This document shows, piece by piece, positions 1,093 to 5,125 of a DNA stretch of 5,125 nt. Location of the stretch: IMG/VR virus record IMGVR_UViG_2698536640_000005, positions 1-5,125 of that record. One strand, written 5' to 3'. The position numbers and the translations under genes are program-made. Positions within the stretch are counted from its first letter, which is position 1; each line of letters opens with the position of its first letter. This DNA comes from a virus (lineage: Duplodnaviria; Heunggongvirae; Uroviricota; Caudoviricetes). The notes under the pieces were generated by a model. That model worked only from the letters and a program-made list of their open reading frames with translations, was not told where the DNA came from and ran no database searches.

Positions 1093-1383
1093 TTAACAGG
1101 TTTTGTTTGGATACTGTCTTCGTGAGTGAACTACATTTACGATCTCGATGTTAGATGCTGTTACTCGGTAAAGTATTATGTAGTTAGGATGAGTCACTAT
1201 CTCACGAAGACTTGGAACTCTTTCGCTCGGTGGGTACAGATAAGGGTGTTCAGTAAGTGACAAAACTGATGTTTCAATGCGTATTTTTAGTCTACGTGCA
1301 GCGGGAGGGTTTTCCTTAGCAATATAGGCTACGATCTGACGTAAATCATCACGTGCAGAAGGTAGCCATAAAATGGGCAGCAT
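1093..1383 (-). CDS. parE: Type II toxin-antitoxin system toxin, RelE/ParE family
   Basis: 96-aa product with a ParE-like pattern (LPSARDDLRQIVAYIAKENPPAARRL ... YIILYRV ... IEIVNVVHSRRQYP). The start ATG overlaps the antitoxin stop (TAATG at 1381-1385), typical of TA coupling. Confidence 0.9.
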   Translation of the reverse strand: MLPILWLPSARDDLRQIVAYIAKENPPAARRLKIRIETSVLSLTEHPYLYPPSERVPSLREIVTHPNYIILYRVTASNIEIVNVVHSRRQYPNKTC

Positions 1384-1574
1384 TACTCACTCCTGTTCGT
1401 TGCAGCTAATTGAGCAATAAGGTTTTCCATTTCAGCCATTACTTCGTCATGTGGAATTGCAGGACGGGGATCTGAGAGGCTTGCTGCCACTTTGGCTCGC
1501 AACCATTCGTTATAGCTGTTTTCTTGTTCGACTGTTTCAAATTCAGAAATTATCGGGGAAAGGGCTGTACTCAT
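1383..1574 (-). CDS. paaA: Small acidic antitoxin, PaaA2-like (63 aa), partner of ParE
   Basis: 63-aa acidic protein immediately upstream of and overlapping parE. Strong SD GAGGAGG 7 nt before the ATG at 1574. Size and context match the PaaA2 antitoxin of the paaR2-paaA2-parE2 locus as I remember it; sequence identity not verified. Confidence 0.75.
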   Translation of the reverse strand: MSTALSPIISEFETVEQENSYNEWLRAKVAASLSDPRPAIPHDEVMAEMENLIAQLAATNRSE

Positions 1575-1591
1575 GTTTTGACCTCCTCAGA

Positions 1592-2092
1592 TTAGGCGCG
1601 ACGACCCTTTTGCGCAGCTAGCCATCGCGCAACGATTTCTTCAATTGATTCTTTTTTCTCCTTCATTTCCTTAAGCATTTTCTCTTTATCTTCTTTGGGG
1701 AAAGCCCTGAACGTCTGGAGCAAATCCCGCTCCATGGGGTCTATATTAAACGGAAGTTCGTTTTCCGATTGTTCCATATCTGCAGATATAGTGACAACAT
1801 TGTCCTCCCCAGACTCTTGGGGATACATCCTTACAATTTGTAACAACTCGGCCATATCTGGTCTGATTGACTCGGGAGGAACTTGCAGCAACCCTGCGAA
1901 CTTGATAACAGCCTCAAGATTTAAAGGTGTCTGACCATTTAGATAATGGCTTACAGCTCCCTGTGTCGAAAATCCCAGAATTTCTGCCGCACGCTCTTGG
2001 GTTAACCCTAGTTGATTTTTTTTCGCCGTCCAGATTTCTTTCAGTCTCTGGGCGGCTTGCAGGTCGATCTCTGACAGGGATTTTCTTTTCAT
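1592..2092 (-). CDS. paaR: CI-like prophage repressor, HTH XRE family (PaaR-like), without an S24 peptidase domain
   Basis: 166-aa product with an N-terminal XRE-type helix-turn-helix (LGLTQERAAEILGFSTQGAVSHYLNG). The C-terminal half is Lys/Glu-rich and lacks the Ser/Lys peptidase motifs of LexA/CI. It is divergent from the Cro-like gene and sits 17 nt upstream of the antitoxin start. There is no canonical SD; a candidate -10 ends 7 nt from the ATG (possible leaderless mRNA). Confidence 0.85.
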   Translation of the reverse strand: MKRKSLSEIDLQAAQRLKEIWTAKKNQLGLTQERAAEILGFSTQGAVSHYLNGQTPLNLEAVIKFAGLLQVPPESIRPDMAELLQIVRMYPQESGEDNVVTISADMEQSENELPFNIDPMERDLLQTFRAFPKEDKEKMLKEMKEKKESIEEIVARWLAAQKGRRA

Positions 2093-2099
2093 ACCTTCA

Positions 2100-2187
2100 A
2101 TTCTAATAAGATTATTAATCTCTTTGAAATAGTGATGCTATTTACTTTTAAAAATAACAATGCTATTAATGATCGTGATGACATCAC
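2100..2187. promoter_or_regulatory. Divergent switch region between repressor and Cro-like genes: operator palindromes and candidate PRM-like / PR-like promoters
   Basis: Palindrome AAATAGtgatgCTATTT (2127-2143); repeated half-site ATGCTATT (2135-2142 and 2160-2167); second palindrome GTGATGaCATCAC (2175-2187). Candidate rightward promoter: -35 TTTACT 2141-2146, 17 bp, -10 TATTAA 2164-2169. Candidate leftward promoter: -35 TTCAAA (plus 2123-2128), 17 bp, -10 TAGAAT (plus 2100-2105). Promoter hexamers are read by eye and unverified. Confidence 0.5.
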
Positions 2188-2199
2188 ATGAGGTGAACA

Positions 2200-2475
2200 A
2201 TGAATCTTGGAGAATATTTGCATCATTCCGGTATAACTCAGAAGCATTTTGCTGAAATTGTTGGGGTAACCCAAGGGATGGTAAGCCATGTCATTACCGG
2301 ACGGGCGAAACTTACGGGGGAAAAAATTTTACGCTGGTGCGAAGCAACAGGCTGGATAGTAACTCCGCACGAGATTGATAGCAGTACTTATCCCAACCCA
2401 ACCGACGGCTTACCTGTCGAGTATCAGGCTAACACACAACCAGAGGCGGGGGTGATTCATGAAAATCAAGCATGA
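2200..2475 (+). CDS. ydaS: Cro-like HTH DNA-binding protein (YdaS family)
   Basis: 91-aa product with an N-terminal HTH (GITQKHFAEIVGVTQGMVSHVITG). SD GAGGTGA 4 nt upstream. Divergent from the repressor gene; overlaps the next gene by 17 nt. Confidence 0.85.
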   Translation: MNLGEYLHHSGITQKHFAEIVGVTQGMVSHVITGRAKLTGEKILRWCEATGWIVTPHEIDSSTYPNPTDGLPVEYQANTQPEAGVIHENQA

Positions 2476-2884
2476 ACACATCCGTATGGCAATGAATGCC
2501 TGGGCGTATCCAGACGGTGAGAAAGTTCCAGCAGCTGAAATAGCCCGGACTTATTTCGAACTGGGGATGACGTTCCCGGAACTGTACGACGACAGCCATC
2601 CGGAAGCCCTGGCCCGTAATACCCAGAAAATTTTCCGTTGGCTGGATAAAGACACCCCTGATGCTGTTGAAAAAATTCAGGCTCTGTTACCGGCGATCGA
2701 AAAGGCAATGCCGCCTCTGCTGGTGGCCCGTATGCGCAGTCACAGCTCTGAATATTACCGTGAGATCGTCGAACGGAGGGATCGGCTGGTGAAAGATGTG
2801 GATGATTTTGTCGCAGCGGCGATCGCCTGGGGCACCCTGACTAACAGTGGTGGTCAGCCTGGTAATGCTGTTGTCGTGCATTGA
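2459..2884 (+). CDS. ydaT: YdaT-family protein (CII-like regulator of lambdoid cryptic prophages)
   Basis: 141-aa product, the size of Rac YdaT, immediately after the YdaS-like gene. SD GGGGGTGA 4 nt upstream. Family assignment rests on size, synteny and recollection. Confidence 0.8.
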   Translation: MKIKHEHIRMAMNAWAYPDGEKVPAAEIARTYFELGMTFPELYDDSHPEALARNTQKIFRWLDKDTPDAVEKIQALLPAIEKAMPPLLVARMRSHSSEYYREIVERRDRLVKDVDDFVAAAIAWGTLTNSGGQPGNAVVVH

Positions 2885-2952
2885 CCAACAATATTCATGC
2901 CGGATTTCTTCCGGATGTTCGAGGGTAAAGTTCGGTATCAGATGAGGTGAGT

Positions 2953-3993
2953 ATGGCTAATGCCTGGCTCAGATTGTGGCATGACATGCCAAATGATCCC
3001 AAATGGCGAACCATTGCCAGGGTCTCAGGACAGCCAATCGCAACAGTGATGGCGGTGTATATCCACCTTCTGGTGAGTGCGTCACGAAATGTCACGACAT
3101 GTCACGGCGTGTCACTACGTGGTCACATTGATGTCACGACGGAAGATTTAGCAAGTGCGCTTGATGTGACGGAAGACGTAATTGATTCAATTTTGCATGC
3201 AATGCAGGGGCGGGTTCTGGATGGTGACCTTATTTCCGGATGGGAAAAACGTCAGGTGCTGAAAGAGGACAATGGTAACGTTTCGCAAACGGCAAAATCC
3301 CCGGCAGAGCGCAAGAGAGCGCAGCGGGAGCGCGAAAAGCTGCGGAAATATGATGCTGATTGTCACGATGAGTCACGACGTGTCACGCATCCGTCACGAC
3401 AAGTCACGACAGATAAAGATACAGATACAGAATTAAACCCCACACATAACGCGCGCATGCGCGAGAGTGCTCCAACCGGTGAGTCGCATGGTGCGCCGTT
3501 GCAGACAGCCGAACCTGAATACCTGGACGGCCTGAGCGAACCGATCGGGAAATTTTCGATGACTACTGTCTGGCAGCCGTCGTCGGATTTTCGACAACGG
3601 GCAGCAGTGTGGGGTATGGCTCTGCCTGAGCCGGAATTTACACCTGCAGAGCTTGCCGCATTCCGGGATTACTGGATGGCGGAGGGGAAGGTTTTCACGC
3701 AGGTTCAGTGGGAGCAGAAATTTGCCCGCCACGTGCAGCACGTCAGGGCACAGGTAAAACCAGTCAGCAAGGGGGTAAACCATGCAGCAGCACCAGGTGG
3801 CACCGCATCACGGGCAGTTCAGGAAATTCGGGCAGCACGTGAGCAGTGGGAACGTGAAAACGGATTTATCAGCGACGGAAACGGCCTGGAAGCTGTGGGA
3901 GCTTATGGGGGAGGTGTATTCGAACCGCTGGACCCAGAAGAACGGGGCCGCACCTTCGAAGCTCTGGATTGCCCAGATTGGCGCGATGACTGA
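2953..3993 (+). CDS. Phage replication initiator / replisome organizer (lambda O-like) with a DnaT-like C-terminal region; origin iterons lie inside the gene
   Basis: Long ORF (the track starts it at GTG 2947; ATG 2953 has SD GAGG at a 5-nt spacer). The C-terminal region FTPAELAAFRDYWMAEGKVFTQVQWEQKFARHVQ resembles the DnaT-like domain of phage replication proteins. Two iteron clusters are embedded in the reading frame, as oriLambda is in gene O. The 3' 212 nt overlap the P-like ORF. Confidence 0.75.
   Translation: MANAWLRLWHDMPNDPKWRTIARVSGQPIATVMAVYIHLLVSASRNVTTCHGVSLRGHIDVTTEDLASALDVTEDVIDSILHAMQGRVLDGDLISGWEKRQVLKEDNGNVSQTAKSPAERKRAQREREKLRKYDADCHDESRRVTHPSRQVTTDKDTDTELNPTHNARMRESAPTGESHGAPLQTAEPEYLDGLSEPIGKFSMTTVWQPSSDFRQRAAVWGMALPEPEFTPAELAAFRDYWMAEGKVFTQVQWEQKFARHVQHVRAQVKPVSKGVNHAAAPGGTASRAVQEIRAAREQWERENGFISDGNGLEAVGAYGGGVFEPLDPEERGRTFEALDCPDWRDD
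3081..3140. repeat. Iteron cluster 1: six GTCAC(G) direct repeats at 10-11 bp spacing
   Basis: GTCAC starts at 3081, 3091, 3101, 3111, 3122 and 3133 (units such as tGTCACGAc), i.e. one per helical turn. Confidence 0.7.
3362..3440. repeat. Iteron cluster 2 (five GTCACG repeats at 10-11 bp spacing) plus adjacent AT-rich tract; candidate replication origin core
   Basis: GTCACG starts at 3362, 3372, 3382, 3393 and 3403, followed directly by the A-rich stretch AGATAaAGATAcAGATAcAGAATTAAA (3411-3437). Iterons followed by an AT-rich unwinding region are the classic lambdoid ori layout. Confidence 0.65.
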
Positions 3994-4447
3994 ACAGCAA
4001 ATCCGGCTGGTCTGCCGTCAGTGCATGGACCGCTGCCGGGCGGGTGAAACGTGGCCCCCGGACCTGGCTGAGTTTGTTGCACTGATTTCGGAGAGTGGGG
4101 CAAATCCATTTGGTCTTACGGTGGATGCAGTGATGGAAGAGTACCGGCGCTGGCGCAATGAATCCTGGCGATACGACGGGAGTGATAAATACCCGTGGCC
4201 ACAGCCTGTGCTGTACCACATCTGCCTCGAAATGCGTACCAGAGGGATTGAGCGCCAGATGACGCAGGGTGAGTTAAAACGACTTGCGGAACGGCAACTG
4301 ACGAAATGGGCAAAGCATGTTGGTAACGGGATGAGTGTTCCGCCAGTGCGACGACAACTGGAAGGGGCGAAACACCCGCAAGGGCCAACGCCAATTGAAC
4401 GGCTGAAACAGGAATACGAACGCCGGAAGGCAGCTGGTTTTATTTGA
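3782..4447 (+). CDS. Replication protein P-like (DnaB helicase loader)
   Basis: The C-terminal two-thirds align by eye with lambda P as I remember it (PPDLAEFVAL vs SPGQFVAWC; DKYPWPQPVLYHI vs ESYPWKSNAHYWL; QGELKRLAERQL vs DAELRRKAADEL). The start is uncertain: ATG 3782 has a good SD (AGGGGG) but overlaps the O-like ORF by 212 nt; ATG 3905 and ATG 3986 (8-nt overlap with the O stop, ATGACTGA) are alternatives. Confidence 0.7.
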   Translation: MQQHQVAPHHGQFRKFGQHVSSGNVKTDLSATETAWKLWELMGEVYSNRWTQKNGAAPSKLWIAQIGAMTEQQIRLVCRQCMDRCRAGETWPPDLAEFVALISESGANPFGLTVDAVMEEYRRWRNESWRYDGSDKYPWPQPVLYHICLEMRTRGIERQMTQGELKRLAERQLTKWAKHVGNGMSVPPVRRQLEGAKHPQGPTPIERLKQEYERRKAAGFI

Positions 4448-4480: not shown

Positions 4481-5125
4481 ATGGAAACCGTATTTGACGC
4501 ACTGAAAGCACTGAAAAGAGCCTCTTCACAGGTAGTGGCGGCCCGCCTTGGAATCAGCCGTGAAGATGCGGTCAACGAACTGTGGAAACTGAAGCGCCGC
4601 GGTGAAGCGGATAACAAGGGTTCGATGTGGCGGCTGATTCAGGCTGGTGAAAGTGAACCGGTGTCACCGGTACCGAAAGTGACAGCGCAAATGCTGACTG
4701 AGGCGATTGAACAACATGGCCCACAAACGGCGGATGAGCTGGCACTGATGTTCGGGATTACCTCCCGCCGGGCGAATTCATCGCTGGCCATGGCAATCAG
4801 CAAAGGGCGTCTGATTCGCGTGAATCAGGGCGGTAAATTTCGTTACTGCATACCGGGCGCTGATTTACCGGCAGAGCCGGAAGCTGCATCCGTAGCGGAA
4901 ACCGATGGTAAAGCCTTTCCTCAGCCAGCAGGTGTTGCGTTACCTGTCCGGGAAGCAGAAACACAGGAAGAAATAAAAACGGAAAGTGTGGCGGTCACAG
5001 TGCAGTCACAGCCGTCGTTCACCAGAAAACATCCGGATGGTCTGATTTTACCATCGCTGCATGTGGCTAACCGCGAGCTGCGCCGGGCAAAAGGTCAGGT
5101 TCAGAAGTGGGAGCGAGTCTGCGCC
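4481..5125 (+). CDS. Hypothetical phage protein with two winged-helix-like repeats (3'-truncated by window end)
   Basis: Not in the ORF track because no stop occurs in the window. ATG 4481 is preceded by SD GGAGG (4468-4472, 8-nt spacer), and the frame stays open for 215 codons to position 5125. Two similar segments ([15 protein letters not shown]...GSMWRL and [15 protein letters not shown]...GKFRYCI) suggest an internal duplication of a winged-helix-type module. Confidence 0.65.

Follow-up and report, generated by a model that had tools for sequence, protein, structure and literature searches.

A candidate replication origin formed by GTCAC iteron arrays inside the initiator gene of a CP-933P/Sp12-like lambdoid prophage

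Two clusters of short GTCAC repeats and the easily melted tract that adjoins the second of them probably constitute the replication origin of a CP-933P/Sp12-like lambdoid prophage, situated inside the gene of the prophage's own initiator. An origin embedded in this 'O-like' gene had been claimed by the first-pass annotation. As far as sequence analysis can indicate, the claim appears strongly supported by selection at the DNA level, by co-inheritance and covariation of the arrays with the initiator, by the uniqueness of the arrays and by a stability minimum beside them. A search of the available literature found no binding or replication experiment on this initiator family.

The prophage region and its initiator

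The window, the whole stretch of 5,125 nucleotides that was analysed, is the immunity and replication region of a CP-933P/Sp12-type lambdoid prophage. The minus strand encodes a ParE toxin of 96 aa (1093-1383), a PaaA2 antitoxin of 63 aa, also named 'stability determinant' (1383-1574), and an HTH repressor of 166 aa (1592-2092). These genes make up a three-gene paaR2-paaA2-parE2 module (1093-2092, minus strand), with its toxin-antitoxin pair inside a prophage immunity region, and the same placement has been described for CP-933P (PMC8630535). The plus strand carries a Cro/YdaS-like gene (2200-2475), a YdaT/CII-like gene (2459-2884), the initiator gene, which is the O analogue and encodes 346 aa (2953-3993), a P-like helicase loader gene (3986-4447) and a DUF1627 gene that begins at 4481. 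The paaR2-paaA2-parE2 / ydaS-ydaT arrangement has been described as a lambda-like switch, with the downstream 'o' gene mentioned in passing (PMC8630535).

The loader gene was assigned through Pfam, PHROG and BLASTP. It matches the Pfam model Phage_lambda_P (PF06992) with 58.3 bits against a cut-off of 26 (E 1e-15), as well as PHROG 109, 'P-like helicase loader', and its product is 25% identical to lambda P (BLASTP, E 1e-6). The start used is ATG 3986, equivalent to that of the RefSeq relatives, and the gene overlaps the initiator stop codon by 8 nt (ATGACTGA). The ORF listing extends the same ORF upstream to an ATG at 3782, 212 nt inside the initiator gene. RefSeq names the relatives of the two proteins 'DnaT-like ssDNA-binding domain-containing protein' (initiator) and 'replication protein P' (loader). 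Promoter and terminator counts in a scan of 2000-4100 were no higher than chance, and one promoter-like match on the minus strand, inside cluster 2 (3386-3359), reached 9/12 only.

Three parts can be distinguished in the initiator: a predicted winged-helix domain at the N-terminus (about aa 1-105), a linker predicted to be disordered, and a DnaT-like domain at the C-terminus (aa 201-267, nt 3553-3753). The C-terminal domain matches the DnaT DNA-binding domain of Pfam (PF17948) with 62.1 bits against a cut-off of 25 (E 4e-17). The NCBIfam model for DnaT is matched in part, its 95.8 bits being under the equivalog cut-off of 201. No model of Pfam (E <= 10) or NCBIfam matches aa 1-166. This includes PF09681, the N-terminal domain of phage replisome organisers, which gave no match to the N-domain even at E <= 10, so that the database name 'phage replisome organizer' is not backed by a model match. 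Comparison of lambda O with a profile of 46 N-domain sequences by hhalign returned a probability of 0.08%, that is, no detectable homology. The earlier label 'O-like' is therefore apt by analogy but not by descent of the N-domain, which has neither homology to lambda O (hhalign 0.08%) nor a Pfam match.

The winged-helix fold of the N-domain is predicted from an AF2 model. The nearest structures are DnaD-NTD and an iteron initiator of RepA_N type from an MDR plasmid (4pta), at 9-12% identity, a level at which homology is not established. DnaD-NTD is mainly an oligomerisation module and not a sequence-specific DNA binder. Helix 74-84 of the predicted N-domain is not basic. In the same model, cluster 1 encodes a low-confidence loop of the N-domain and cluster 2 encodes part of the disordered linker, with pLDDT < 50 for aa 142-163. 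Alignment of 24 N-domains by iteron class gave no convincing set of specificity-determining residues, as iteron class is confounded with phylogeny.

At least 80% of the segment 2900-4000 is present in 658 of 5426 complete E. coli genomes, or about 12% (megablast). The carriers include O157:H7 and other STEC, with up to six matching places per genome. Relatives of this initiator type also occur in Pseudomonas, Aeromonas and Ralstonia phages and in environmental phages. Database proteins of the family are mostly annotated 'partial'; several resident prophages share the initiator gene, and short-read assemblies evidently break there as a result. The origin may be inactive in many of the E. coli copies, which sit in cryptic prophages.

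The GTCAC arrays and the constraint upon them

Cluster 1 (3081-3138, plus strand) consists of six head-to-tail copies of (T)GTCAC(G), whose GTCAC cores start at 3081, 3091, 3101, 3111, 3122 and 3133, all on the plus strand, at a spacing of 10, 10, 10, 11 and 11 nt; it encodes aa 43-63. Cluster 2 (3362-3408, plus strand) consists of five head-to-tail copies of GTCACG, starting at 3362, 3372, 3382, 3393 and 3403 on the same strand, at a spacing of 10, 10, 11 and 10 nt, and encodes aa 137-152. The last copy of cluster 1 is separated from the first copy of cluster 2 by 229 nt. Nine of the 11 copies read GTCACG, the exceptions being GTCACT at 3111 and GTCACA at 3122.

The first-pass annotation had listed eleven GTCAC(G) copies in two clusters at a spacing of 10-11; its positions are exact and the arrangement is far beyond shuffle expectation. 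Nine GTCACG copies were reached by none of 200 dinucleotide shuffles (mean 2.4). GTCAC with a same-strand neighbour at 10 or 11 nt occurs 13 times in the window, namely the 11 array copies and a pair at 4994/5005, whereas 5000 dinucleotide shuffles averaged 0.03 such copies and never exceeded 4. Tandem Repeats Finder returned two arrays of period 10, one at 3081-3126 and one at 3362-3410, together with an ACAGAT array of period 6 at 3409-3431.

Two further candidates were rejected. The sequence GTCACAGTGCAGTCACAG (4994-5011), with two GTCAC 11 nt apart inside the DUF1627 gene, was considered as a third array; the same 18-mer is also found in locus L006, whose initiator gene is without GTCAC iterons, and it is thus unrelated to the origin. 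A DnaA box had been read at 3058-3067, in error, since the true sequence at 3056-3067 is TGTATATCCACC and not TGTATCCACC. The true sequence has at least two mismatches to TTWTNCACA. Sites with at most one mismatch to the DnaA box number 8 across the window against 9.0 expected, which is no enrichment.

Immediately after cluster 2 lies an A/purine-rich tract, (ACAGAT)n...AATTAAA (3409-3437, plus strand), the candidate DNA-unwinding element and also the joint between modules. No 30-mer of the gene is less stable than 3408-3437, which has -32.1 kcal/mol where the mean is -42.9 (sd 2.9), a GC fraction of 0.35 and an AT skew of +0.54. The A-rich, AGATA-type tract noted earlier beside cluster 2 is hence confirmed as the stability minimum of the gene, its AT content being modest at 65-68% over about 30 nt. 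Twelve relatives were inspected, and in these the stretch that follows cluster 2 has a coding-strand purine fraction of 0.51-0.89 and an AT content of 51-76%. The peptide that the tract encodes is a plausible flexible linker, and selection on the protein may account for part of the conservation of the tract. A repeat search located a GC-rich palindrome, CGCGCATGCGCG, at 3452-3463, and a near-identical sequence occurs in Rac-type initiator genes (L007). In gene coordinates, cluster 2 occupies nt 410-456, the purine-rich tract nt 457-485 and the palindrome nt 500-511.

The repeats had also been described as translated in frame into VT-rich peptide segments. This is wrong, as the core falls in all three frames. 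As neither 10 nor 11 nt, the two lengths of the repeat unit, is divisible by three, the core is read as gcG TCA CGa (S-R), GTC ACG (V-T) and tGT CAC Ggc (C-H-G), and no peptide repeat results. Constraint was tested on an alignment of 55 unique relatives from IMG/VR and phage records. Third-codon positions within the six-base cores have a mean variability of 0.0125, with 18% of columns varying, compared with 0.165 and 83% for the remaining third positions of gene nt 1-462. The cores are thus about 13-fold less variable (Mann-Whitney p = 3e-8, a value that is only indicative as the aligned sequences are related). Conservation of synonymous positions in the core places the constraint on the DNA and not on the peptide.

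Copy number among the relatives changes by 10, 11 or 21 nt and ranges from 4-6 in cluster 1 and from 3-6 in cluster 2. Indels of 7 aa in the array regions preserve the reading frame. A comparison of iteron sequence and count across relatives, as proposed with the first-pass annotation, shows a count that varies and a core that differs by N-domain clade. A separate observation concerns Escherichia phage 204576 (L008 1501-2000), in which the initiator frame is apparently shifted after about aa 122 and the GTCACG arrays are intact. Cluster 2 is thus read in another frame ('KMAIVTARHEMSRTCHDESRQIKIQ...'), through either a frameshifted gene or a sequencing error.

A model of the origin and competing explanations

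In the proposed model, the N-domains of the initiator would line up head to tail along one face of cluster 2, with one of them bound at each helical turn. The resulting nucleoprotein array, analogous to the lambda O-some, would strain the tract at 3409-3437 open. The DnaT-like C-domain may then hold the single strand, recruit the P-like loader or do both, and the loader would deliver the host DnaB. As in lambda, transcription from the rightward early promoter would traverse the site. Cluster 1 lies about 22 helical turns upstream and would, together with its inverted copy, form a second binding array, which might either enlarge or loop the initiation complex or tune initiator expression and origin firing.

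The inverted copy is a single core, CGTCACA (3165-3171, minus strand), 33 nt after cluster 1. Each of the 11 GTCAC-clade loci examined has it at the corresponding site, with an invariant third-codon position. In the GCAAC and GTGAC clades, the inverted copy abuts the fourth direct copy to give a perfect palindrome (GCAACGTTGC and GTGACGTCAC). A second inverted GTCAC, at 3224-3228, was set aside as probably due to chance, since its third positions vary and it is not conserved.

Cluster 1 is under selection. It is absent from lineages L012, L108 and L115-L117, and is thus not essential for the initiator family. The earlier remark that two clusters are less usual than the single block of lambda was fair as such, but two arrays are frequent in this family, and some members have the downstream array only. 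The upstream array occurs at three codon positions, aa 43-63 in most members, about aa 74-86 in L118 and about aa 23-33 in L120, which suggests repeated independent acquisition. In the latter two, both environmental phage contigs (L118 1398-1433 and L120 1266-1303), it has four copies of GAACG or GTCACG.

Helical phasing between the clusters was considered and was not demonstrated. The gaps are 229, 228, 219, 198, 188, 241, 286, 127 and 265 nt, for which the Rayleigh test gives p of about 0.05-0.13 at periods of 10.0-11.0. Gaps that differ by one unit follow trivially from gain or loss of a copy. It is a tentative suggestion, and rather doubtful, that the origin is a two-part structure with cooperating arrays, the second array being selected in its own right within the sequence for the initiator's own DNA-binding domain. 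If so, the arrays could cooperate through an initiator-bridged loop of about 130-290 bp, for example, or through a phage form of iteron handcuffing or titration control. Residues of the initiator loop would then be dictated by the protein's own binding site.

An alternative is that the arrays are initiator sites mainly for control, through autorepression, a roadblock to transcription in the initiator's own gene, titration or copy control of the handcuffing type, and that unwinding takes place elsewhere; a milder version limits this role to cluster 1 and its inverted copy. The presence of two separate arrays fits such a role, as does the inverted copy or perfect palindrome (GCAACGTTGC, GTGACGTCAC) beside cluster 1, which resembles an operator. 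Cluster 1 is moreover dispensable in some lineages, and a protein bound there, near the start of the gene, could block transcription. Against this stand the low-stability purine-rich tract after cluster 2 in 12/12 loci inspected, the location of cluster 2 exactly where lambda has its iterons, and two complete genomes without any other phased array to act as the real origin. A role mainly in control is accordingly judged unlikely.

The origin reading is further informed by the inheritance of the gene. The segment 2927-3431, which holds the N-domain and both arrays, matches phages vB_EcoM-606R7 and Tritos, whose C-terminal halves differ. The segment 3411-4000 matches Rac-type initiators with a DUF1376 N-domain and without GTCAC (megablast in both cases). 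Matches to the two parent types overlap at 3411-3431, in the ACAGAT tract that is common to both, and the tract is thus the joint between the N- and C-terminal modules.

More distant relatives keep the arrays in place. A tblastn search with aa 1-166 recovered the N-domain, 59-67% identical, from Pseudomonas phages and from Aeromonas phage pAEv1818; the genes there have GTCACG arrays in matching positions (gene nt 129-165 and 388-455), with a gap of 228-229 nt between them. The initiators of these phages are partnered by a primase-helicase or a helicase, and the immunity genes are different. The clade of Ralstonia phage Hennie, at 38% identity, has the core GCAACG at the same gene positions (nt 130, 140, 151, 161 and 182, and nt 401, 411, 421 and 431 in Hennie). 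Further lineages from IMG/VR have the cores GTGACG, AACGC, GTAAC or GAACG and keep the layout.

In the complete genomes of phage Tritos (46 kb) and of Hennie (39 kb), the cognate motif forms phased runs exceeding two copies in the initiator gene and nowhere else; outside it, Hennie has one isolated two-copy pair of the 5-mer. An automatic scan found the downstream array in 29 of 30 related loci. Locus L119 has only a weak two-copy signal, elsewhere, and a Microcystis phage homologue has no obvious iterons within the gene. The repeats thus appear specific to the cognate initiator, as the arrays travel with the N-domain whatever the C-domain, helicase partner or immunity region. An initiator paired with its iterons would be expected to show just this combination of co-inheritance, covariation and uniqueness, which argues against a host factor or an upstream regulator as the binder.

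This bears on the possibility that the arrays are sites of a protein other than the initiator, either a host factor or a phage regulator of the YdaT/CII-like or Cro-like kind. A YdaT-family gene does precede the initiator gene in the E. coli, Pseudomonas and Aeromonas members. However, YdaT-family genes also precede DUF1376-type initiators that are without GTCAC, and Hennie has the full two-array layout yet no annotated YdaT-family gene upstream. The repressor and Cro types also differ among loci with identical iterons. A host factor would have to contend with a core that differs between phage lineages and tracks the N-domain. Binding by such another protein is thus considered very improbable.

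The last explanation, that the repeats are a repetitive peptide or a neutral, slippage-prone tandem repeat without a function as DNA, could draw on their place in an ORF, in loop and linker regions tolerant of length change, and on their variable copy number, but it is effectively refuted at the level of sequence by the 10/11-nt unit read in three frames with no peptide repeat, by core synonymous sites about 13 times less variable than elsewhere, and by a different core at the same place in proteins 38% identical.

Comparison with known replication systems

The closest parallel to the candidate origin is oriLambda, which has the same architecture and for which the role of the AT-rich tract has been described (PMC7466680). 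Both lie inside the initiator gene, at the junction of an N-terminal DNA-binding and a C-terminal loader-binding domain. In both, the linker-coding part of the gene carries first the iterons, then an easily melted, A/purine-rich tract and finally a palindrome. The lambda record has its iterons at nt 349-433 of the O gene, followed by ACACAAAAGACACTATTACAAAAGAAAAAAGAAAAGATTATT and then the palindrome, and CGCGCATGCGCG is the positional analogue of this palindrome to the right of the lambda AT-rich region. As in lambda, a P-family loader gene comes next and the region is downstream of cro- and cII-type genes. Features of a lambda-type intragenic origin are present in the form of at least three direct repeats in the initiator gene (6 + 5) and an easily melted tract adjoining them. 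Iteron number also varies in lambda-type origins, including those of the Stx phages P27 and 933W with six iterons, and is matched by peptide insertions (PMC7466680).

The two systems differ in their parts. Lambda has a single block of palindromic iterons, which are about 18-19 bp long, lie about 20-24 bp apart and are each occupied by an O dimer. The present arrays have a directional unit of 10-11 bp with a core of about 7 bp, usually in two arrays about 230 bp apart. The N-domain is without homology to lambda O and the C-domain is DnaT-like.

A second comparison is with the replisome organisers of Gram-positive phages. Work by Missich et al. in 1997 reportedly placed the binding repeats of SPP1 G38P (oriL) within its own gene 38, and the replication proteins of lactococcal phages TP901-1 and Tuc2009 are likewise said, after Ostergaard et al. 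in 2001, to have repeats in their own genes. Proteins of the SPP1 G38P type are non-AAA+ origin binders that act with a separate loader or helicase (PMC3561973). The name of replisome organiser has been applied to the present protein by NCBI and some phage annotators. The hosts, repeat sequences and C-terminal domains are different, however, and PF09681 is unmatched.

The Rac prophage YdaU/YdaV module, with oriJ, shares the same DnaT-like C-domain, a P-like loader and a DUF1627 neighbour. The tract GATACAGATACAG...AATTAAACCCCACACATA is common to the window and the Rac module, and from 3411 onward the DNA is 87-95% identical. Passages of PMC3945230, and of Potrykus et al. 2000 as relayed in PMC11014345, present oriJ as an active origin that supports plasmids. 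Unlike the present gene, the Rac module has a DUF1376 N-domain and is without GTCAC; before the shared tract it carries TGTTCAA(A/G) repeats, one of them inverted. In the Rac-type loci L007 (1016-1520) and L006 (1071-1520), these comprise three direct copies and one inverted copy, located within the roughly 130 nt that precede the GATACAGATACAG tract. The TGTTCAA(A/G) repeats are probably the cognate iterons of the Rac-type module, and possibly of the oriJ type. The iterons of plasmids, for their part, are usually 17-22 bp long, lie outside the rep gene and mediate handcuffing.

The candidate origin, with its iterons, unwinding tract and module joint, offers a concrete target through which prophage replication could be studied or blocked. 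The module joint would explain where lambdoid phages swap their replication modules. The family would also supply natural cognate pairs of an initiator domain and a core of 6-7 bp for the study of how specificity evolves.

A literature search on these iterons, the YdaU/oriJ repeats, the Eru types of Stx phages and DnaT-like replisome organisers found no description of this origin, an earlier in-silico mention being possible. It is textbook knowledge, from lambda and the Gram-positive replisome organisers, that an intragenic origin of iterons and an AT-rich region can be paired with a modular specificity domain. What appears to be new is a family with an uncurated N-domain and with monomer-sized, directional repeats of 10/11 nt, usually in two arrays. 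The design is the lambda paradigm built from unrelated parts, and it varies that paradigm without introducing a new principle.
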